Origin: a virus
Virus genome (UHGV): UHGV-0144530
Reading direction: 5' to 3' (one strand)
DNA length: 17,582 nt
Under the pieces are notes generated by a model. That model ran no database searches, was not told where the DNA came from, and was given only the letters and a program-made list of their open reading frames with translations. This document shows, piece after piece, positions 2,145-13,948 of the stretch; positions within the stretch are counted from its first letter, which is position 1; every line of letters starts with the position of its first letter. The position numbers and the translations under genes were made by a program.

Positions 2145-2930
2145 TCACTCTCCTTTGATGCGAATGCCAGTAGCGCGGATTGCATCGATGACTTCAGAAA
2201 CTTTGTATGCCATTACCGTTTGGTAATCATCGTGAAAATCTGTTCGATGAAGCATGCTGCTACGTTCCGGGAGCGTTATTTCCCGAGCATCCAGTTCCTT
2301 AACGCGTTCCTCCAGTTCGTAGACCCTGCATTGTTCTCTATCATCAATCAGATATAACCCAAGACATTCGCTTTCTACCCAACCGCCAAAATCATGATCG
2401 TAACGCTCACATGAAAACTCACCGTCACCGTCCTTTGTTGGAATGGTGTAACTGTCTAATGGGCCACCGTACGTCGGCACATTTCCTAATGTCGGATGCT
2501 CAATCCACATAAAAAATGCACGTCCGGTTATTGGGCAAATATCTGGCCGCCATTGGTTACGAACAGCGTTGGTTTCTGATAATTCTTCAGCGTGTTGTTT
2601 TACTTCCTCAAGCTCAACACGCAGCTTCCCTACCGTTAGCGCAATATCCTCGTTCTCCTGATCGCGGCTTTTGATGTATTGCAGGTTTCTTTCCCGTTCA
2701 TCCAGCAACGCCTGCACTACTTCAGGGTTGAAAGCTGCGATATAACGCGCGTTATTCTCTGCGTTTTCCTGTCCATCAAAGCCGGTCCATTTGATAACGT
2801 CTTCACATCGTTTATCACCGGGTGTATGCACCGCATATGTACCAGTACCCGACGAAATAAATGCGACCCATTCGCCCTGCGTGGCCTGTTTTGCTATCTC
2901 ACGCAGTGCCTGATAGTCAATCTTGCTCAC
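2145..2930 (-). CDS. Ea22-like early accessory protein (tentative)
   Basis: 261 aa; GTG start at 2930 preceded by RBS AAGGAGG; conserved-looking N-terminus [21 protein letters not shown], central coiled-coil and Cys-rich C-terminus, in the ea22 position between the recombination module and xis. Confidence 0.35.
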   Translation of the reverse strand: MSKIDYQALREIAKQATQGEWVAFISSGTGTYAVHTPGDKRCEDVIKWTGFDGQENAENNARYIAAFNPEVVQALLDERERNLQYIKSRDQENEDIALTVGKLRVELEEVKQHAEELSETNAVRNQWRPDICPITGRAFFMWIEHPTLGNVPTYGGPLDSYTIPTKDGDGEFSCERYDHDFGGWVESECLGLYLIDDREQCRVYELEERVKELDAREITLPERSSMLHRTDFHDDYQTVMAYKVSEVIDAIRATGIRIKGE

Positions 2931-3529
2931 TGGTTGCCTCCTTTTCGAAGCTGGGCGGCGATATCTTCGAGAACGCCATCAGAGAATGAGCGGTCAAAAT
3001 CGCCTTCCGGCGCATTAGCCATAAACTCAGTAGAGGTAAGAATCATCCGGGCAATATCCGCGGCGTTCTTCGCAGTATCATCAATAAAACCAGCTTCCCA
3101 GGCAGCCAGCATTCTGTTCGCCACAAAGTAAGCGCCCTCCTTGCGTGCTTCAGTCTTCACTTCAGCCAGGAAAGCATCGGTGGCTGGTGTTTGCGGCATC
3201 CCTCCATCTGTTGCGCAGATATACGCATCAGATATTTCATCCTGCTCGCCATCAAACACGTAGCAACTCTGTGCGATAAATTTATTCAGCCCAGCATTCT
3301 CCGCTGCCAGTGCTGAAAACTTCTCGTGTGCCAACTTAACAGCAGAATCAGCCTGCTTAATTGACTCAATCGCTTTCTGTTGGTCTTCGGACAGAGCTGA
3401 AATCTTGGCCTCCGCTTCAGTAAATTTGCGTACCAGATATTCAGCATTTGTTTCGTTAACCTTTAAATCACATGGGATGCATTTACCTTTCAGAAAACCA
3501 TCCATCTCAATTAGTGACATTTGTTTCAT
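2927..3529 (-). CDS. hypothetical protein (200 aa), coiled-coil rich
   Basis: ATG at 3529 overlaps the stop of the upstream ORF (ATGA coupling); no recognised motif. Confidence 0.45.
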
Positions 3530-3690
3530 TTCTTCCCACTCCGCCACATCGCATTCAGATATTTGTTTTGATTCACTGATGGAAAAGAATTTCTCTTAAG
3601 AAATTCCTCTCTCGATGGCATTGGCTTTACGCGTTGGCGAATAATCATTTCTGCCGGAAGAATGCCGGGATTGTATGCAAGTCCTCTCAT
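3526..3690 (-). CDS. hypothetical small protein (54 aa)
   Basis: ATG at 3690 preceded by GAGGAA; translationally coupled to neighbours. Confidence 0.35.
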
Positions 3691-3700
3691 GGTAAATTCC

Positions 3701-3997
3701 TCAGTCATTACTGATAGCGCCATAGCGTGAGCGGTAATTACGCAGGCGCGGGTCGATATATTCAGGGAATTTGTCTATTGTCGCTTTTCGCAACGGTCTC
3801 ATTGCTGTTTCGTTTGTTCGGTCCTTCTCCTGTTTTAGCGCGAGTTGTATATCGCGTCGGTACATCCGTTCTGCTTTTGTTTCTGGTGTCAGAGCAAGAA
3901 ACGCGTCGAAATTGTTTTTGATATTTTCCAGCACCTCCGCCTTGGAGCTACCGGAGCAATTGCGCGGGTCATCCGCACCATACAGAGGCGCTGGCAT
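3701..3997 (-). CDS. hypothetical protein (98 aa)
   Basis: ORF-track ORF in the leftward operon; weak RBS. Confidence 0.4.
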
Positions 3998-4020
3998 AAT
4001 GGGAGCCTTATTTTCAATAA

Positions 4021-4608
4021 TCAGAAAGGAGGGTAATCGTTCTGGCTGTAACCATAATCATCTGCATGATTCTGGCTTACGTTTTTAGAGCGATTGTCTT
4101 TATCTTTGAGGCTGGCAACCATGTTGGCGATAGTTTCTGGTTGCTTGCCTTCCGCCTTTTCTTTAAGGGTTTGACCTGTTTGTGCAATAAACGGGATGCG
4201 TATTTCCATCTGGTAGCTGTCTGCGCCAGTCTTTTTGTTTGTGGTTAATACTTTCTGGAGCACTAACCCGATTTTCTTTCCATGAAACTCAGGAGCAACA
4301 AATTTACTGGCGGAAACCATATGTTGCGTTAATTGTCCAATCCCGGCACACCCCATCATGGCGTGAACGACATTTGCGCCAAATTTGTTTTCCGTTCCGT
4401 CATTTTTCTGAACACAGACGCTAAGATATTGGATTTTACGTCCGTCGTCGGATTCTCCAGAAAACTCAATAAATTTGGCTCCTTTTTCTGATTGCTTTAG
4501 TTCTGCTTCAGTAATGGTAATGATATGGGCGCCAGTTTCGTTAATAAAACCACCTTGCCCTGCGGTCAGTGCTGCTTCTTCGTTATAAGTAAAAATCACG
4601 TTGCTCAT
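4021..4608 (-). CDS. putative ssDNA-binding / recombination accessory protein with SSB-like acidic C-terminal tip
   Basis: 195 aa; C-terminus ...DDYGYSQNDYPPF resembles the conserved SSB tail (D-D-D-I-P-F); translationally coupled (ATGA) to the upstream AAA ATPase, as in Sak4-SSB modules. Confidence 0.4.
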   Translation of the reverse strand: MSNVIFTYNEEAALTAGQGGFINETGAHIITITEAELKQSEKGAKFIEFSGESDDGRKIQYLSVCVQKNDGTENKFGANVVHAMMGCAGIGQLTQHMVSASKFVAPEFHGKKIGLVLQKVLTTNKKTGADSYQMEIRIPFIAQTGQTLKEKAEGKQPETIANMVASLKDKDNRSKNVSQNHADDYGYSQNDYPPF

Positions 4609-5285
4609 GCGGCGTTTTCCTTAATTTGATGAACATTATTGATGCCGTAGTAATCACAAACAGTGGCATCGACGAAAGAGAGATCGTTATCAATCTCATT
4701 GGAATCAAACATTCCCATTGGGGATTTGACAGTGTCTGCACCGTTGTTTTTCGTGGTGAAAAAGAACTGGTCATCGCGGGTAAGAGTGCGAAGAACTATA
4801 GTAAACATGCCTTCGACAGTGATTTTCTCGTCCAGCATTTTGCCGATAGTTTTCATTTTCACGCGCCCCATAGGGGTTTCTTCGGTATGTGCAAGAAAAT
4901 AGACTCTCAGGTCATCAGGTGCATCCTGTGCAGCCTTAATCACCTCCCATGCGTGGCGGCCTATCTCAGTAAATTTATCAAACGATTTTTCTTCTGAGCG
5001 GCGCATAAACTCATTGCTCATCACATACTGGAAGTCATCAACAATAACGATTCTTTTTCCGTATTCGTGAGCACGCTTAATTGCAGCAACTATTACGTCC
5101 CATTTGTCAGTGGTAACTACGGTTCCTTTTTTTGCTCTGGCATCCCATGCAAGCCAGTCTTTTGATTTAAATGGTAGCGGCTTGCCTATTGGTTTTATAA
5201 GTATTGCTTCCTCTGGATTGATATTTCTCATGCTGGTTGATTTTCCGGTGCCAGATTCACCGAGTATTAATGTCGCAGTTCCCAT
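4605..5285 (-). CDS. RecA-fold AAA_24-type ATPase (Sak4-like recombination protein)
   Basis: 226 aa; Walker A GESGTGKST near the N-terminus; hydrophobic strand plus acidic residues IVIVDDFQ as Walker B; size and position (where lambda gam/bet/exo sit) match phage Sak4-like ATPases; RBS GAGG. Confidence 0.55.
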   Translation of the reverse strand: MGTATLILGESGTGKSTSMRNINPEEAILIKPIGKPLPFKSKDWLAWDARAKKGTVVTTDKWDVIVAAIKRAHEYGKRIVIVDDFQYVMSNEFMRRSEEKSFDKFTEIGRHAWEVIKAAQDAPDDLRVYFLAHTEETPMGRVKMKTIGKMLDEKITVEGMFTIVLRTLTRDDQFFFTTKNNGADTVKSPMGMFDSNEIDNDLSFVDATVCDYYGINNVHQIKENAA

Positions 5286-5293
5286 AATTTGCC

Positions 5294-5482
5294 TCAGAAT
5301 GGTAATTCGGATGGGCAGGAAAGAAATTCGCGCTCATTCATGCGCTCTCTTTGCGCCTGCCATAAACAAAGTTGTTTCTTTGATTTATCTCCCGCTTTAC
5401 GCCAGTAACGAGCCTCAGCAATGTGATACTCTCTTTTTAATCGACTTAACTCTGGAGTTTTCGCCAGTTCTACCGGAATCAT
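5294..5482 (-). CDS. hypothetical small protein (62 aa)
   Basis: ATG at 5482 preceded by GGAGG; overlaps the kil stop. Confidence 0.4.
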   Translation of the reverse strand: MIPVELAKTPELSRLKREYHIAEARYWRKAGDKSKKQLCLWQAQRERMNEREFLSCPSELPF

Positions 5483-5592
5483 TTTGACCTCCATTTTCTG
5501 TAGGCTTCTACGGCTTCACGAAACATCTTTTCATCGCCAATAAAAGTGGCGATAGTGAATTTAGTCTGGATAGCCATAAGTGTTTTATCCAT
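5479..5592 (-). CDS. kil: Kil-like host-killing protein (37 aa)
   Basis: MDKTLMAIQTKFTIATFIGDEKMFREAV...; start ATGGATAAA overlaps the 3' end of cIII as lambda kil does; identity recalled from memory, not searched. Confidence 0.5.
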   Translation of the reverse strand: MDKTLMAIQTKFTIATFIGDEKMFREAVEAYRKWRSK

Positions 5593-5725
5593 TTTTGGGA
5601 ACTCCTGGCTGATTAAGTATGTCGATAAGGCGTTTCCATCCATCACGTAATTTACGTGTGATTCGTTCAAGTAAAGATTCGGAAGGGCAGCCAGCAACAG
5701 GCCACCCTGCAATGGCATATTGCAT
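5585..5725 (-). CDS. cIII: CIII, inhibitor of FtsH-mediated CII degradation
   Basis: MQYAIAGWPVAGCPSESLLERITRKLRDGWKRLIDILNQPGVPKNG matches lambda CIII almost residue for residue; RBS AAGGAG; ORF-track frame 5585..5827 trimmed to the ATG at 5725. Confidence 0.8.
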   Translation of the reverse strand: MQYAIAGWPVAGCPSESLLERITRKLRDGWKRLIDILNQPGVPKNG

Positions 5726-5782
5726 GGTGTGCTCCTTATTTATACATAACGAAAAACGCCTCGAGTGAAGCGTTATTGGTAT

Positions 5783-5811
5783 GCATATAAAAAGGCCCTC
5801 ACACTGGAGGG
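5783..5811 (-). terminator. intrinsic terminator-like hairpin on minus strand
   Basis: minus-strand CCCTCC-agtgtg-AGGG followed by CCTTTTTATAT; upstream of cIII. Confidence 0.4.
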
Positions 5812-5874
5812 CAAAGAAGATTTCCAATAATCAGAACAAGTCGGCTCCTGTTTAGTTACGAGCGACATTGCTCC

Positions 5875-5902
5875 GTGTATTCACTCGTTGGAATGAATAC
5901 AC
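5875..5902. repeat. perfect 9 bp inverted repeat with 10 nt spacer
   Basis: GTGTATTCA-ctcgttggaa-TGAATACAC; in the untranslated stretch between the orf66 terminator and cIII. Confidence 0.6.
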
Positions 5903-5930
5903 AGTGCAGTGTTTATTCTGTTGTTTATGC

Positions 5931-5960
5931 CAAAAATAAAGGCCACCATCAGGCAGCCTT
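5931..5960 (-). terminator. intrinsic terminator on minus strand
   Basis: minus-strand AGGCTGCC-tgat-GGTGGCCT (8 bp stem with 2 G-U pairs) followed by TTATTTTTGG; the orf66 stop codon lies in the loop. Confidence 0.55.
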
Positions 5961-6149
5961 GTTATTCTGTTTACCAAGTTCTCTGGCAATCATTGCCGTC
6001 GTTCGTATTGCCCATTTATCGACATATTTCCCATCTTCCATTACAGGAAACATTTCTTCAGGCTTAACCATGCATTCCGATTGCAGCTTGCATCCATTGC
6101 ATCGTTTGAATTGCCCACACCATTGATTTTTATCAATAGTCGTAGTCAT
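5949..6149 (-). CDS. hypothetical Cys-rich small protein (66 aa)
   Basis: MTTTIDKNQWCGQFKRCNGCKLQSEC... with four Cys in the first 27 residues; ORF-track ORF. Confidence 0.45.
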   Translation of the reverse strand: MTTTIDKNQWCGQFKRCNGCKLQSECMVKPEEMFPVMEDGKYVDKWAIRTTAMIARELGKQNNKAA

Positions 6150-6219
6150 AAGGATAGTCCTGGTATTGTTCCATCACATCCTGAGGATGCTCTTCGAACT
6201 CTTCAAATTCTTCTTCCAT
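6133..6219 (-). CDS. candidate very acidic micro-protein (28 aa)
   Basis: MEEEFEEFEEHPQDVMEQYQDYPYDYDY; RBS GAGGTG 4 nt upstream of the ATG at 6219; 3' end overlaps the start of orf66; below the ORF-track size cut-off. Confidence 0.3.
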   Translation of the reverse strand: MEEEFEEFEEHPQDVMEQYQDYPYDYDY

Positions 6220-6227
6220 ATATCACC

Positions 6228-6338
6228 TCAAATAAGTGGTTTGCTGCCTAATTTCATTTTCTGGCGACCAACACAAGTCACACCCATTTCACTGCGTGGC
6301 TTGCGGTAGTAAAGATTGTGCCTGTCTTTTAACCACAT
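6228..6338 (-). pseudogene. fossil 3' end of a lambda-type N gene
   Basis: open frame ending ...NLYYRKPRSEMGVTCVGRQKMKLGSKPLI-stop aligns with the lambda N C-terminus ...RTWYSKPGERGITCSGRQKIKGKSIPLI; the frame is open back to about 6392 but has no N-terminal half, ARM or convincing start. Confidence 0.6.
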
Positions 6339-6400
6339 CAGGCTCGGTGGTTCTCGTGTACCCCTACAGCGAGAAAAATAGTAAAATCCTCTTCACCCCC

Positions 6401-6763
6401 TTACTTTGTCAGGGGGATATCTCCTTCAGTTCTGACCATTCGCCTTAATACTTTCCTTAAGTCGATGTAAAGTTGAATGTCTCCATTTGCTGCGGCATCA
6501 GCCATTTTTTGCCTGACAAGCAGTAATGTTTCATACGGCTCAATAAGAATATCGTCATGAGTAATTAGGTGAAGCGTTGCCGCATCAACTATTCCTAGAG
6601 CTGCGCCAAGTATCAAAAATTCCCTGCTATTTTTGTCGCATGAGGAGATAAGCGTATTTAGCGCATACCTAATATTCTTTATAGCTGTTGTTAATGCTGC
6701 AATTTCTTCTATGGCGTCTTCTTCAATGAGCTTTTTAAGCTCATATTTTTCTTCCTGACCCAT
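6401..6763 (-). CDS. hypothetical protein (120 aa) immediately downstream of N
   Basis: ATG at 6763 with RBS GAGG; the N stop TAA lies inside GAGGTAATTATG; ORF-track frame 6401..6847 trimmed; no recognised motif. Confidence 0.5.
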   Translation of the reverse strand: MGQEEKYELKKLIEEDAIEEIAALTTAIKNIRYALNTLISSCDKNSREFLILGAALGIVDAATLHLITHDDILIEPYETLLLVRQKMADAAANGDIQLYIDLRKVLRRMVRTEGDIPLTK

Positions 6764-6765
6764 AA

Positions 6766-7035
6766 TTACCTCGCCGTCAGTTGTTTTGATTTCCGGTAGC
6801 CTGCCGCGTAAATAGCTACGTTTGGCAGGCAAATACTTCCACTGCATTCATCTGCCTTCTTGCAGCGAAGGCTTCCGAGTGATGCTGCTTTATCTGCTCT
6901 GACGCAACCAGAGAGCTTTAGCGCAATTTTTCGTGCCAATCGCTGTTCTTGCATTGCCTGTTCACGTTGAGCCTGTCTGCGTGCTCTGCGGCGATTTCTG
7001 GCGTTATCATCAGCCAGATAAGTAACGATTATCAT
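6766..7035 (-). CDS. N: N-like transcription antiterminator (89 aa)
   Basis: arginine-rich motif NARNRRRARRQAQREQ near the N-terminus; strong RBS GGAGG 5 nt upstream of the ATG at 7035; lies downstream of nutL; ORF-track 6766..7164 is an unsupported in-frame 5' extension. Confidence 0.6.
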   Translation of the reverse strand: MIIVTYLADDNARNRRRARRQAQREQAMQEQRLARKIALKLSGCVRADKAASLGSLRCKKADECSGSICLPNVAIYAAGYRKSKQLTAR

Positions 7036-7759: not shown

Positions 7760-7794
7760 AAAAGAAAACCCGGCGCTGAGGCCGGGGGTTTTTA
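7760..7794. terminator. bidirectional intrinsic terminator
   Basis: CCCGGC-gctgag-GCCGGG with an A-run on the left and a T-run on the right, so a U-tract follows the hairpin on either strand; ends the cI-orf98 transcript. Confidence 0.65.
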
Positions 7795-8088
7795 GTCTTT
7801 TCTTTTGCTTAGCATTTCGTCGATTTCTAAGTCAATACGATATTGATCTATTGCTTTTCTCTCGTTTGGGGTTGGTATTTTATACTGTTCAATTAGATCT
7901 GTTGTGTATTTTATTTCATCTAATGTGATTTTTATATCAGAGAGAATCTCTTTTATATCAATTAGATGCTCTTCTTCTTTTGCGCGATTAGAGCTATGTT
8001 CAATCATTTGAGATAGCTTTTTGCTAATGCTTAGCAAAACAAAAAGAATGATGACCAAAACAACAACAAAAACTATCAGAAATTCCAT
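7792..8088 (-). CDS. membrane-anchored coiled-coil protein co-transcribed with cI (98 aa)
   Basis: hydrophobic N-terminal helix EFLIVFVVVLVIILFVLLSI then a charged, heptad-like C-terminal half; strong RBS GGAGGG 4 nt upstream; about 40 nt downstream of the cI stop; strongly AT-rich relative to neighbours. Confidence 0.6.
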   Translation of the reverse strand: MEFLIVFVVVLVIILFVLLSISKKLSQMIEHSSNRAKEEEHLIDIKEILSDIKITLDEIKYTTDLIEQYKIPTPNERKAIDQYRIDLEIDEMLSKRKD

Positions 8089-8128: not shown

Positions 8129-8836
8129 TTACCAACTATGAGACGACCAGAATACTCTGCCAATAATCCTTACGGTTTCATGAAATTCATCTCTATCCAT
8201 TACTTCATCCGGGTACTCTTCGCGATTTATTGATCTGATTATCACCGATGTAGGGGTGGCGATTAATGTTTTTACTCGTAACAAATCAGACTGGCAAATA
8301 GCGTAGGTTTTACCATCTCTGATTGTGGTATCTTGCGTGTTAACACCAACAACATCGCCATCGTGAAGCGTTGGTTCCATGCTTTGCCCTACAACCCTAA
8401 CTAGCTTGGCTGATCTTTCTGATACTCCCATCTTTTTCAGATAGTGCTTTCTGAAAACCAAAGAGAACTCCGATGATTCCTCTAGCTCGCAGCTACCGCT
8501 TCCAGCTGAAAGCGAAACGTTAAGAAGAGGCAACGCAACAAACTCGTCATCGTTTCTTTTAATGTCTTCCCATACCACAGCTTTTAAAGATGACTCACGG
8601 ACATTGGATGGTTCTTCATGTGCACCATCCCTCATTTCACCAATACCAGAACTAAGCCATTCAGGACGCACTTTTAAAGCATTGGCTAATTCAACCATCT
8701 TGCGAGATCCGTTTGTTTTACCGGACGACATCTTCTGTATGGCTGGCTGAGATATTCCAACCATGTCAGCAAGCTGTGATTGTGATACCCCTGCTGAGCT
8801 CATGGCTGCATTTAGTCTTTCTGCGAATGTTTTCAT
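8129..8836 (-). CDS. cI: CI-type prophage repressor (HTH plus S24 LexA-like peptidase domain)
   Basis: N-terminal HTH (VSQSQLADMVGISQPAIQKM), Ala-Gly cleavage site in SLSAGSG, catalytic Ser in GQSMEPT and Lys in LRVKTL; ATG at 8836 abuts the operators; ORF-track 8129..8866 begins at an upstream TTG. Confidence 0.85.
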   Translation of the reverse strand: MKTFAERLNAAMSSAGVSQSQLADMVGISQPAIQKMSSGKTNGSRKMVELANALKVRPEWLSSGIGEMRDGAHEEPSNVRESSLKAVVWEDIKRNDDEFVALPLLNVSLSAGSGSCELEESSEFSLVFRKHYLKKMGVSERSAKLVRVVGQSMEPTLHDGDVVGVNTQDTTIRDGKTYAICQSDLLRVKTLIATPTSVIIRSINREEYPDEVMDRDEFHETVRIIGRVFWSSHSW

Positions 8837-8848
8837 ACTCACAAATCT

Positions 8849-8914
8849 ATAACTACGGTTATCCAAAGTAAAATAACAAAGGTTATTGCTATTTTTTATA
8901 ACTTGAGTTATCTT
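8849..8914. promoter_or_regulatory. OR operators with divergent pRM and pR
   Basis: three perfect 14 bp palindromes ATAAC-N4-GTTAT at 8849-8862, 8873-8886 and 8898-8911, centres 24-25 bp apart; plus-strand -35 TTGCTA (8886-8891), 17 bp spacer, -10 TATCTT (8909-8914). Confidence 0.65.
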
Positions 8915-9600: not shown

Positions 9601-9741
9601 AAACAACTCAGTCCTTACCAGGACAAAATTCACAAACACATACTACGTGATCGCTTCCTGTCCAGCTTCAAGCAGCCTGGTCGATTCCGGGCTGAGTTGG
9701 AAAAAGTGAAGCTGATGCAGAAGGAGAAAGGTCATGAGTAA
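9595..9741 (+). CDS. small ORF (48 aa) using the lambda O translation-initiation region
   Basis: CAGGAGTCATTATGACAAA is the same as the lambda O RBS and start, but the protein diverges after Met-Thr; overlaps the start of the O-like gene. Confidence 0.35.
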
Positions 9742-10594
9742 TCTTGCAACCGTAACACATTTAAGGCCCTCACAACGGCCTGTGGAGCGTCGTGTGGCAG
9801 AAGTTGAAGATGGTTATACCCGTCTTGCAAATGCCCTGTATGAAGAGCTTATCGGCGCAGATTTAACAAAAAATCAGAGCAAGGTTGCCCACGCCATATG
9901 CCGTAAAACATACGGATACGGTAAAAAGATGGATCGCATCTCTGATAGTCAGTTAGCTCAAATTACCAGGCTGCCAAGACAGAAGGTAAACAAGGCCAAG
10001 AATGAGCTTATCGCGATGAAGGTAATCCTTCGCGAAGGCCAGCAAATCGGGCCTAACAAGAACATCGAGGAATGGCAAATCGAAGGGTGTCACTACTCTG
10101 GTGATAATGTCACTGCATTGGTGACAAAAAGTGTCACCAAAACGGTGACAGCGCTGTCACCAAAACAGGGACACACAAAAGAAACTATTACAAAAGAAAA
10201 AAGAAATAATAAAAACACTATGTCCGAAAGTGTTCGGACGGAGTGTGAAAAATCATCTGACCGTCACGAAGAAACCGACAAGGCATTCGAGGAAATATTC
10301 TGGTGTGCAGGCATGCGGAAAGCCGGGAAAAAAAACGCAGCTTCGGCATTCAGAACACAGTTCAGGGAATGGCGTAAAACTACCAGGGGTACGGCAAGCG
10401 AGTTTGCCACGATGCTGGCAGAAGACATCGCATGCAGGAATGGTAAGCAGTTCGGATTCGACAGGTTGTTACCATCGAGCTACTTGAACGGTCAGCGCTG
10501 GAACGACGAAAAGCCAGAAACCATTCAACCACAATCCAAACCATCATCCGCAATCACCGTATCGAAAACTGGCTACGTGTTTTTCGACAGGTGA
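9734..10594 (+). CDS. O: replication initiator, lambda O family, with a divergent C-terminal domain
   Basis: N-terminal half aligns with lambda O (ADLTKxQxKV...RKTYG...MDRIxDSQL...GPNKNIxEW; linker [15 protein letters not shown]); the C-terminal 100 aa are unrelated; RBS AAGGAGAAAGG. Confidence 0.8.
10086..10225. other. origin of replication: iteron array plus AT-rich region inside the O-like gene
   Basis: inverted-repeat iterons on a GTGACA/TGTCAC core (GGTGATAATGTCAC 10100-10113, GGTGACAAAAAGTGTCACC 10120-10138, GGTGACAGCGCTGTCACC 10144-10161), then an AT-rich stretch that closely parallels the lambda ori AT-rich element. Confidence 0.7.
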
Positions 10595-10597
10595 ACC

Positions 10598-10705
10598 ATG
10601 AAATCAAAAATCAAATCGCTACTGGTCGCTGGTTATAACCACGGCTGGTTAAGTATTTCGTTTGTCGATTTCTGGTTTAAAAATCTCAATCTGAGGGAAT
10701 CATGA
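10598..10705 (+). CDS. candidate small ORF (35 aa) coupled to the primase-helicase
   Basis: ATG at 10598 follows GGTGA and the O stop; its stop overlaps the primase-helicase start (ATGA); below the ORF-track cut-off. Confidence 0.25.
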   Translation: MKSKIKSLLVAGYNHGWLSISFVDFWFKNLNLRES

Positions 10706-12582
10706 GGCCAAGTGAACTTAGCGACCTGCTTTGGGCGCAGGTTGACAGGGTGGCTCCGCACCTGTTGCCAAATGGCAAGAAAGAGGGGCATGAGTGGGTT
10801 GCCGGTAACGTCAACGGTGACAAGGGAAACAGCCTTAAGGTCAACCTTAGCGGCAAGAAAAAATGGGCTGATTTCGCTGAGGGAGACGGCGGTGACATGC
10901 TTGATTTGTGGATGGCATGTCGTGGAATTAACCTGCATCAGGCTATGCAGGAAGCGAAAGCATTTCTCGGTATCAAGGATGACGATCACCATTTCGATGC
11001 CAGACGTGAGAAAAAATTCTCCAGACCTGATCGCAAGAAAATCGCCCGCTACGTTACCAGAACAGAATCCCATCTTGAGTACCTGCAATCGCGTGGCATA
11101 TCGCCAGAAATCGTAAAGCGCTACGAGGTTGTCAGCGGCAAGGTGTGGAATGGAGAGCGGGAACTGGATGCTCTGGTGATTCCGTACAAACGCGATGGTG
11201 AGTTGTTGCAGGTCAAGCGAATCAGCACTGAGCGCCCGGACGGGAAGAAAGTCATTATGGCAGAAGGTGATTGCGAACCTTGCCTGTTCGGATGGCAGGC
11301 TCTGGACGCTGGCGTGAGGGCGGTTGTACTTTGCGAAGGCGAAATTGATTGTATGAGCTATGCGCAATACGGCATCTCGGCGTTATCCGTACCGTTTGGT
11401 GGAGGGAAAGGCGCTAAGCAACAGTGGATTGAGTTTGAGTATCACAACCTCGACAGGTTTGAGGAAATATTCATCTCGATGGACGTTGATGATGTTGGTC
11501 GTGAAGCCGCAAGGGAAATCGCAAGCCGACTCGGTGAACATCGTTGCCGTCTTGTTACTCTGCCGTGCAAAGACATCAACGAATGCCTGATGAACGGTGT
11601 TACCGAGGATGAAATCTGGCAGTACATCGGCACGGCATCCTACTTCGATCCTGAAGAACTCTACAGCGCGCGAGAGTTTTACCAGGACACTATCAACGCT
11701 TTCTACGGCAAGCAGCAGTATCTGTTTAATCCACCGTGGGAATCTCTGGCAGATAAATTCCAGTTCCGTGAGGCAGAGTTGACGCTGGTCAATGGTGTGA
11801 ACGGTCACGGAAAAACGGAGGTTGTCGGGCATATGGCACTTGAGGCAATGCGTCAGGGTGTGAAGACGTGCATCGCGTCACTTGAGCTGAAGCCTGGTAT
11901 TCTCCTTAAGCGCCTTACCCGTCAGGCGACGTGCTGCAAGATGCCGCCAGTGCTGGAAATTGACTCTGCATTTAAATTTTATGACGAAAGACTTTGGGTG
12001 TTTGGCCTGACCGGAACGGCGAAAGCCGACAGGCTGATCGAAATATTCGACTACGCTCGCCGCCGATACGGGATCCAGTTATTCATCATCGACAGCCTGA
12101 TGAAATGTGGCATAGGCGACGATGACTATAACGGGCAGAAGGCGTTTGTTGACTCGATTTGCGACTTCAAAAACAAAACAAACTCCCACGTCATTCTCGT
12201 TACTCACTCGCGAAAAGGAGACAGCGAAGAAAAACCAACCGGGAAAATGGACGTAAAAGGCTCTGGAGCGATAACAGACCTGACAGACAACCTTTTCATC
12301 ATCTGGCGTAACAAGGCTCGCGAGAGAGCGTTACAGAGAGTTCAGAGTGGTGAAAAGATGTCAGAGAAGGACGAACAGCTACTGGCATCTCCGGCATCTG
12401 TTTTGATGCTTGAAAAACAACGTAACGGCGAAGGTTGGGAAGGTGGTGTCCCGTTGTTCCTTGACGAGCAATCGCACCAGTTCCTGCAACTTGAATCAGG
12501 ATCGCCATATAGCTACATCGCCAATATGCCGAAATCGGAATATGACGAGGCGTGGCGACAGGAAAACGTGACGGAGTATTAA
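10702..12582 (+). CDS. bifunctional DNA primase-helicase (TOPRIM plus DnaB-like RecA-fold helicase)
   Basis: 626 aa; TOPRIM-like acidic segments (VVLCEGEIDCMSY, ISMDVDDVGRE) in the N-terminal half; helicase Walker A GVNGHGKT and Walker B LFIIDSL in the C-terminal half; occupies the slot of lambda P. Confidence 0.75.
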   Translation: MRPSELSDLLWAQVDRVAPHLLPNGKKEGHEWVAGNVNGDKGNSLKVNLSGKKKWADFAEGDGGDMLDLWMACRGINLHQAMQEAKAFLGIKDDDHHFDARREKKFSRPDRKKIARYVTRTESHLEYLQSRGISPEIVKRYEVVSGKVWNGERELDALVIPYKRDGELLQVKRISTERPDGKKVIMAEGDCEPCLFGWQALDAGVRAVVLCEGEIDCMSYAQYGISALSVPFGGGKGAKQQWIEFEYHNLDRFEEIFISMDVDDVGREAAREIASRLGEHRCRLVTLPCKDINECLMNGVTEDEIWQYIGTASYFDPEELYSAREFYQDTINAFYGKQQYLFNPPWESLADKFQFREAELTLVNGVNGHGKTEVVGHMALEAMRQGVKTCIASLELKPGILLKRLTRQATCCKMPPVLEIDSAFKFYDERLWVFGLTGTAKADRLIEIFDYARRRYGIQLFIIDSLMKCGIGDDDYNGQKAFVDSICDFKNKTNSHVILVTHSRKGDSEEKPTGKMDVKGSGAITDLTDNLFIIWRNKARERALQRVQSGEKMSEKDEQLLASPASVLMLEKQRNGEGWEGGVPLFLDEQSHQFLQLESGSPYSYIANMPKSEYDEAWRQENVTEY

Positions 12583-12687
12583 ATGACAATCTACATCACT
12601 GAGCTAATAGCAGGGTTATCGTTACTAATGGTTCTTACTGTATATATTATTAAGTATATTCTTTATGCGAATAAAAAAAACAATTGA
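12583..12687 (+). CDS. candidate single-TM micro-protein (34 aa)
   Basis: MTIYITELIAGLSLLMVLTVYIIKYILYANKKNN; the ATG directly follows the primase-helicase stop, with GGAG 8 nt upstream; AT-rich; its 3' end overlaps the HNH start across an A8 tract. Confidence 0.3.
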   Translation: MTIYITELIAGLSLLMVLTVYIIKYILYANKKNN

Positions 12688-13276
12688 TCACGATGAGCTT
12701 CTGTCAACATTATCATATGACTCAGAAACAGGAATATTTAAATGGCTAAAAACAAATTCAGTAGTAAGAGTAAAAGGTAGTATTGCTGGAGGTGTTAGTG
12801 GTGGTTATATATGCATTAGCATAAATAATGTTTTGTATTATGCGCATAGGCTTGCTTGGTTCTATGTATACAAAAAATGGCCTCCTAAGTTTATTGATCA
12901 TGTAAATGGGAACAGACTTGACAATAGGATTTCAAATCTAAGACTGGCAACAGAGGAGCAGAATGCAAGAAACATTGTAGGTAATAGGTTAAACACATCC
13001 GGTGCGATTGGAGTGTCTTGGGATAAGACAACTGGCAGGTGGAAGTCTTATGTTGGTTATAAAAATAAGACAATATCGTTAGGGTATTTCGATAGCAAAG
13101 AAGATGCAGCATTCATAGCAGCACTAGCAAGAAAGAAACTATATGGAACTTATGCGAGTAAAGCACTTAATTGCGAGCATGAGCTTTTATCTCAATTTAA
13201 TAATGATGAGGATAAACTTGCGGAATATCTTAAGGAAAAATCTAAAAGGACTCGAAAGCGTGTTAAAAAAAGATAA
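12665..13276 (+). CDS. HNH endonuclease with C-terminal AP2 DNA-binding domain (homing-endonuclease-like)
   Basis: HNH_3-type motif YAHRLAWFYVYKKWPPKFIDHVNGNRLDNRISNLRLATEEQNARN followed by an AP2-like segment SGAIGVSWDKTTGRWKSYVGYKNKTISLGYFDSKEDAAFIA; AT-rich codon usage; no obvious RBS. Confidence 0.75.
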   Translation: MRIKKTIDHDELLSTLSYDSETGIFKWLKTNSVVRVKGSIAGGVSGGYICISINNVLYYAHRLAWFYVYKKWPPKFIDHVNGNRLDNRISNLRLATEEQNARNIVGNRLNTSGAIGVSWDKTTGRWKSYVGYKNKTISLGYFDSKEDAAFIAALARKKLYGTYASKALNCEHELLSQFNNDEDKLAEYLKEKSKRTRKRVKKR

Positions 13277-13323: not shown

Positions 13324-13530
13324 GTGGCTGAGTTAATTTTCTCTGCATTGAGGCTTCTCGGTGCTATGTGGATGGTGGCGACGTTCATTGTGATTGCTGG
13401 CTGTTTTGTCCGGTTGGTAGGCGAAGGTAAAGACCTGGTGGGTGTGCTTTTCGGTAGCATTCTCCTGTGGGTGATTATCGGTGTTGCGCCTGTTGCTGTA
13501 GCAAAAATGGCGTGGCGTTTTGTTAGTTGA
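13324..13530 (+). CDS. small two-helix membrane protein (68 aa)
   Basis: GTG start with RBS GGGGGAGAG 6 nt upstream; two hydrophobic segments (MWMVATFIVIAGCFV and VLFGSILLWVIIGVAPVAVA); lies in the slot lambda ren occupies. Confidence 0.5.
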   Translation: MAELIFSALRLLGAMWMVATFIVIAGCFVRLVGEGKDLVGVLFGSILLWVIIGVAPVAVAKMAWRFVS

Positions 13531-13537
13531 GGTGACA

Positions 13538-13948
13538 ATGAAGCAAACAATCTTCCTCCGAACTAAGCAACAACAGCAAGCTGCAATAAATGCCATCCTC
13601 GCAACACCACTCGATAAAGACAAGCCAGTCACCATCCGCATTACTGACTACAAGCGCAACCTTGACCAGAACGCAAAATTTCACGCGATGCTGGCGGATA
13701 TCGCACGTCAGGTTCAATGGTGCGGCAAATGGTTAAAACCAGAACAATGGAAGGTTTTGTTGATTAGCGGTCATGCAGTGGCAACAAAGCAGGAAGCTGA
13801 TGTTTTGTCCGGCCTTGAAGGCGAATACGTCAACATTCGCGAAAGTAGCGCGCAGATGAGTGTGAAGCGTATGGCAAGTCTGATTGAGTACACGACAGCA
13901 TGGGCTATTGGTCAGGGCGTCAGATTTACCGACAGGAGGTACGAATGA
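13538..13948 (+). CDS. ninB: NinB-family recombination protein
   Basis: first gene of a lambda-like nin cluster; similar to lambda NinB in length and in motifs such as LDQNxK and the run of aromatic and basic residues; RBS GAGGTGA; ORF-track TTG start 13520 replaced by the ATG at 13538. Confidence 0.65.

Follow-up and report, generated by a model that had tools for sequence, protein, structure and literature searches.

A probable HK620-type Sak4-SSB recombination module in the lambda Red position of a mosaic lambdoid phage genome

The stretch of DNA analysed here (hereafter the window) comprises 17,582 nucleotides of the virus genome UHGV-0144530 and carries, directly after kil, four leftward genes in the order hkaM - sak4 - ssb - abc2 (Table 1). 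The first-pass annotation had singled out two of these four genes, describing a 226-residue ATPase with the Walker A motif GESGTGKST and a 195-residue protein with an SSB-like tail, and both open reading frames were found, the second ending in NDYPPF. Sak4 begins with MGTATLILGESGTGKST, and the C-terminus of SSB reads ...HADDYGYSQNDYPPF. The ssb gene lies directly downstream of sak4 with a 4-base overlap, and the start of each gene is preceded by a purine-rich, Shine-Dalgarno-like stretch; the ATGA stop/start arrangement agrees with the translational coupling that had been proposed for the pair. A cognate ssb has been reported to adjoin about 80% of sak4 genes (PMC5928155). On sequence grounds, sak4 and ssb are genuine genes and not chance open reading frames, because their products match PHROG families at E 5e-108 and 2e-66, respectively, and numerous phage and E. 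coli records contain genes that are 98-99% identical. The plus-strand open reading frames within 4021..5285 (e.g., 4626..4997, 123 aa) were set aside as probable antisense artefacts because minus-strand genes fill the whole stretch in the leftward pL operon.

Table 1. Features of the recombination module and of the adjoining kil-cIII segment (positions refer to the window)
Feature	Position	Strand	Description and basis
cIII	5585..5725	minus	46 aa; identical to lambda cIII residues 1-46
kil	5479..5592	minus	37 aa; Pfam Lambda_Kil E 6e-21
hkaM homologue	5294..5482 (longest ORF to 5494)	minus	62 aa, first module gene; PHROG 1723 E 3e-33
sak4 (hkaL homologue)	4605..5285	minus	226 aa, predicted RecA-core-only ATP-dependent single-strand annealing protein; ORF, profiles and HK620 identity
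Walker A GESGTGKST	5235..5261	minus	Sak4 residues 9-17; read from sequence, same in HK620 Sak4
Walker B-like IVIVDD	5034..5051	minus	Sak4 residues 79-84; read from sequence, same in HK620 Sak4
ATGA stop/start overlap of sak4 and ssb	4605..4608	minus	Read from sequence
ssb (hkaK homologue)	4021..4608	minus	195 aa, predicted atypical OB-fold single-strand DNA-binding protein, cognate partner of Sak4
C-terminal tail NDYPPF of SSB	4024..4041	minus	Sak4-recruiting motif in HK620; read from sequence
abc2, anti-RecBCD protein 2	3701..3997	minus	Pfam PF11043 E 1.5e-35; PHROG 656

The family matched by the ATPase is PHROG 2872 ('Sak4-like ssDNA annealing protein'), with residues 1-220 aligned to positions 1-218 of the 219-position profile. 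In Pfam, AAA_24 is the only P-loop family that exceeds its cut-off (30.4 bits against 27); its match spans residues 5-169 with no second domain match, and a length of 226 aa leaves no room for an extra domain of approx. 70 residues. Moreover, the protein is identical to HkaL of phage HK620 at 224 of 226 positions (substitutions D43/E and A68/V). These results bear out the assignment of the ATPase to the Sak4 type in the first-pass annotation, which had proposed the AAA_24/Sak4 profile search as a check. Walker A and Walker B motifs have both been reported for Sak4 (PMC5928155). A PDB sequence search with Sak4 returned no relative. Assignments to AAA_22, AAA_16, ABC_tran or Zot were rejected, as all of these Pfam matches fall below their cut-offs and mostly cover the Walker A region alone. 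Such sub-threshold matches could be taken to mean that the protein is an unrelated P-loop ATPase (of a packaging, replication or Zot-like type) that adjoins ssb by coincidence. That reading is extremely improbable: the family containing Sak4 alone passes its threshold, the PHROG match is full-length, a demonstrated annealase shares 99% identity with the protein, and the window has its O-like and primase/helicase replication genes and its lysis genes in other places.

The 195-residue protein belongs to PHROG 743 ('single strand DNA binding protein') and is identical to HK620 HkaK at 194 of 195 positions (substitution E153/V). Its cluster at 99% contains 1,407 member sequences and is named DUF669 by NCBI, whereas the Pfam models for DUF669 and SSB found no match; the DUF669 search suggested in the first-pass annotation thus fails when run directly. 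In particular, no Pfam family, DUF669 included, was matched at E<=10, and no NCBIfam match was obtained. Homology to canonical bacterial SSB was not detected either: BLASTP against E. coli SSB gave E 16, and a profile built from 58 SSB homologues retrieved nothing from PDB sequences at E<=10, a single SSB query being likewise unhelpful. The tail, DDYGYSQNDYPPF, is disordered and acidic/aromatic, with a model pLDDT below 50 from residue 177 onwards. In the alignment of the 58 homologues, it follows the consensus D-x-x-x-P-F, and the terminal F is kept in at least 90% of them.

The HK620 pair has been studied biochemically and genetically by Hutinet et al. 2018 (PMC5928155), who purified both proteins. 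HK620 Sak4 requires ATP both for ssDNA binding and for the annealing of complementary strands; no strand exchange was detected in vitro. HK620 SSB, which appears as a tetramer in gel filtration, binds ssDNA and stimulates Sak4, both in annealing in vitro and in recombineering in a recA mutS host (PMC5928155). In this host, Sak4 alone raised recombineering 15-fold and the whole module raised it 210-fold; Sak4 together with SSB alone reached the level of the full module (PMC5928155). In particular, the last six residues of SSB, NDYPPF, are needed for Sak4 to bind SSB-covered ssDNA; their deletion abolishes the stimulation of Sak4 and lowers recombineering 10-fold (PMC5928155). Since the HK620 proteins differ from those of the window by one or two residues, the recombineering assay in a recA host proposed in the first-pass annotation is in effect already published. 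A 2025 survey (PMC12315714) classes Sak4 as a Rad51/RecA-type strand-annealing protein and counts HK620, like lambda, P22 and Rac, as a well-studied lambdoid phage that carries a Rec module.

The three substitutions fall outside Walker A, Walker B and the tail, and the Sak4 and SSB of the window are therefore expected to act identically to those of HK620. By analogy with the HK620 protein, from which it differs at 2 of 226 residues, the window's Sak4 would bind ssDNA and anneal single strands in an ATP-dependent manner. SSB, with its predicted OB fold, would coat phage ssDNA; its exposed C-terminal NDYPPF would bring Sak4 onto the SSB-covered ssDNA; and Sak4, an ATPase predicted to consist of the RecA core only, would anneal complementary strands using ATP, without strand exchange. 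The proposal that the element uses a RecA-like annealing route and not Red is supported by the 99% identity to the HK620 pair, for which annealing without strand exchange has been described. Recruitment through the SSB tail resembles the behaviour of RecO and UvsY (PMC5928155), and Sak4 might accordingly be regarded as a recombination mediator, or as a RecA paralogue that loads or aids host RecA on SSB-coated DNA. This is very unlikely, as recombineering with Sak4 and SSB works in a recA host and no better in a RecA+ host, and RecA strand exchange in vitro was not enhanced by Sak4, from which the authors of the same study concluded that Sak4 is no mediator (PMC5928155). ATP-dependent annealing by Sak4 itself is thus the preferred reading.

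The two remaining genes of the module flank the pair. The homologue of HkaM is identical to the HK620 protein at 61 of 62 positions, and HkaM has been found to be dispensable for recombineering (PMC5928155). Abc2 aligns over residues 1-98 with positions 1-97 of the 97-position PF11043 profile and matches the P22 Abc2 structure (PDB 8b1t_A) at E 3.7e-32. Identity to HK620 HkaJ is 60 of 98 residues (61%), which marks a divergent allele; HK620 Abc2 is itself 94% identical to P22 Abc2 (Hutinet 2018, PMC5928155). At the DNA level, identity to HK620 is 96-100% across the module and drops to 52-84% only in 3723-4022, the centre of abc2. The divergent abc2 allele, which looks like an allelic patch, is common to JEP4 and many Stx phages. 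Abc2 would bind host RecBCD (the RecC subunit) and alter it, and Hutinet et al. 2018 regard Abc2-altered RecBCD as the source of resection in place of a phage exonuclease (PMC5928155). Given the low identity (61%) of the window's allele to the HK620/P22 protein, the case for its acting on RecBCD comes from its membership of the Abc2 family, which suggests such a role. Chi sites (GCTGGTGG) number 0 on both strands of the 17.6 kb, where about 0.5 would be expected by chance, so that the count is not significant; their absence would be consistent with a phage that has an anti-RecBCD function, yet it is uninformative at an expectation of about 0.5.

In HK620 (AF335538, Clark 2001), the gene order kil - hkaM - hkaL - hkaK - hkaJ(abc2) is the same as in the window. 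There, hkaL occupies 5065..5745 and hkaK 4481..5068, with the same ATGA overlap, gene lengths, Walker A and B motifs and NDYPPF; the differences lie in the abc2 allele and in two residues of Sak4 and one of SSB, exchanges that look conservative or neutral. Beyond the module, HK620 covers only 43% of the window, and the rest is a different mosaic. Phages JEP4 and HK629 and Stx1a/Stx2a-converting phages carry the same module: their DNA is 98% identical over 3500-5964, they carry the same abc2 allele, and their Sak4 proteins are 98.7-99.6% identical; in these records, the genes are labelled 'DNA binding ATPase' or 'hypothetical protein' or are unannotated. The segment 3701..5494 on the minus strand is very probably an HK620-type Rec module belonging to a temperate phage (or prophage) with a mosaic, P22-like/lambdoid genome. 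The genes, their motifs, their family membership and the near-identity to HK620 were observed directly, and the activities would be carried over from the 99%-identical HK620 proteins.

The position of the module relative to lambda can be defined closely on one side. By blastn, the window is 96-97% identical to lambda over ral, cIII and most of kil (5490-6244), and the homology ends at 5490, 11 bases short of the stop of the window's kil; in lambda, this point is position 33228, where gam starts. Leftward of the module, blastn finds lambda homology only in short ea22 patches, and the flank, with Abc2, DUF2737 and ea genes, resembles P22, HK620 and JEP4. The swap had been described as module-precise; it is sharp on the kil side, whereas the left flank belongs to P22/HK620-like DNA. 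Kil and cIII are retained, as had been stated. Both are shorter than in lambda (37 vs 47 aa for Kil and 46 vs 54 aa for cIII), the short forms are the same as in HK620, and the HK620 annotation (AF335538) records an early stop of cIII. At 5784|5785, the window lacks ea10, a gene that lambda has between cIII and ral, and shows a clean joint of lambda 33522 to 33923; an old lambda record calls ea10 'ssb'.

It had also been claimed that the cassette stands in place of lambda Red. Consistent with this claim, the module directly follows kil, blastn against lambda detected no gam, bet or exo homology in the window, and none of the 10 leftward open reading frames from 2145 to 6847 matched a Bet/RecT/Exo/Gam family in profile scans. 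The likeness to lambda Red lies in the slot in the pL operon directly after kil and in the combination of a phage annealing pathway with control of RecBCD; there is no sequence homology between the two modules. Lambda Beta is Rad52-like and ATP-independent, whereas Sak4 would have a RecA-core fold and be ATP-dependent; the window's module includes an SSB partner but no exonuclease. The functional counterpart of lambda Gam is Abc2, although Gam blocks RecBCD whereas Abc2 modifies it. The P22 Rec module (arf-erf-abc1-abc2) likewise comprises four genes ending in abc2 and shares the Abc2 family; however, P22 Erf is a Rad52-like annealase, not a Sak4, and P22 Abc1 is unrelated to SSB. The Rec module of the window would functionally replace lambda gam-bet-exo as part of the leftward pL transcript, following N, ral, cIII and kil. 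No sigma-70-like promoter was found in 3400-6400 against an expectation of 5.7, and upstream of cIII there are terminator-like hairpins; this pattern fits an N-antiterminated pL operon.

The main role of the pair during infection may be a different matter from its chemistry. In vivo, the activity of Sak4 and SSB is weak relative to Red-beta (PMC5928155), and this weakness in recombineering implies that their main function in infection could differ from recombination. [quoted passage not shown] It is possible, though rather unlikely, that the pair mainly serves phage DNA replication (for example, the formation of concatemers or the theta-to-sigma switch) through the same chemistry, and not genetic recombination. 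A replication role would, however, extend the annealing mechanism and not replace it; the cited parts of PMC5928155 describe no replication phenotype for HK620, and nothing in the window sequence separates a replication purpose from a recombination purpose. Single-strand annealing within a recombination module remains the favoured interpretation of the pair.

Outside the module, the window combines segments with different relatives. Megablast coverage of the window by any phage record or complete E. coli genome is at most 56%, the best values being 51% for Sf101 and 56% for E. coli 162.2; judged by these comparisons, the element combines known lambdoid/P22-like modules in a mosaic not sampled before. 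Identity to lambda is about 97% in the segment 13952-17582, which holds the nin region, Q, S and R. The replication module (9734..12582, plus strand) consists of an O-like initiator of 286 aa and, after it, a toprim primase fused to a DnaB-like helicase (626 aa), which matches PHROG 239 at E 1e-171 and corresponds neither to lambda O/P nor to the HK620 P helicase. Between this primase/helicase gene (10702..12582) and ninB (13520..13948) lies a gene for an HNH endonuclease of 203 aa (12665..13276, plus strand; PHROG 99, E 3e-72). It forms a low-GC island (about 0.39, with flanks of about 0.47-0.51) and is possibly a free-standing homing endonuclease insertion. A further low-GC stretch contains a 98-aa open reading frame (7792..8088, minus strand) with a hydrophobic N-terminus, which matches PHROG 18389, a label without a function. 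It sits between the cI-like repressor gene (8129..8866) and the pL/N region. Exclusion or moron genes are often carried between cI and pL/N in lambdoid phages.

The ancestry of the SSB component is described differently in two published accounts. According to PMC5928155, other phage SSBs link HK620 SSB to bacterial SSB as a distant homologue; in contrast, the 2025 survey PMC12315714 names HkaK 'SSB-2' and considers it not homologous to bacterial SSB. For structure prediction, a homologue search gave 146 matches, all named ones from Enterobacterales, from which an alignment of 58 sequences was made. The resulting model is confident (pLDDT 83, pTM 0.73) and has a beta-rich core with a helix and a disordered tail; a single-sequence AlphaFold model had been discarded as unusable (pLDDT 39). 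The modelled fold is an OB fold, and the nearest solved structure is PrgE of the Enterococcus plasmid pCF10 (PDB 8s4s/8s4t), not bacterial SSB, although sequence identity to PrgE is only 12-13%. The model thus suggests, as a lead and not as proof, that SSB is an OB-fold protein of an atypical, phage-associated branch and not a canonical SSB.

PrgE has been characterized as an atypical OB-fold DNA binder and is believed by its authors to be of phage origin. It is encoded in a conjugation operon without Sak4, forms a monomer-based filament, and binds both dsDNA and ssDNA (PrgE paper). Unlike PrgE, HK620 SSB was interpreted as a tetramer, on the basis of its size in gel filtration, and as binding an oligonucleotide in the manner of E. 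coli SSB (PMC5928155). The PrgE paper makes no mention of HK620, Sak4 or DUF669. It may tentatively be suggested, with considerable doubt, that the HK620-type SSBs and PrgE constitute a phage-derived clade of atypical OB-fold proteins, perhaps sharing filament-like or dsDNA binding.

Sak4-SSB modules of this type are widespread. Of 5,426 complete E. coli genomes, 179 contain 80% or more of the 1,265-bp gene pair, in every case on the chromosome; phage records with a Sak4 that is at least 90% identical number 66, among them HK629, JEP4 and Stx1a/Stx2a-converting phages. More distant Sak4 proteins were found in phages of Hafnia, Acinetobacter, Pseudomonas, Vibrio, Bacteroides (crAss-like) and Fusobacterium, among others, and the family is therefore not mainly Gram-positive. 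The statement that such cassettes are better known from Gram-positive phages does not hold, the best-characterized Sak4 being that of E. coli phage HK620. The module, its mechanism and its distribution among lambdoid phages have already been published, and the system is known and common. However common it is, most records label the pair 'ATP-binding protein', 'DNA binding ATPase', 'hypothetical protein' or 'DUF669', dozens of them being Stx-converting phages. The practical value of the present analysis lies in annotation, as the pair could be named Sak4 and cognate SSB in such records. The predicted structural kinship of SSB with PrgE is the only marginally new point, this link being apparently unreported in the papers cited here; if PrgE-like properties were true of the phage protein, the nucleoprotein substrate of Sak4 would differ from the classical wrapped SSB tetramer.
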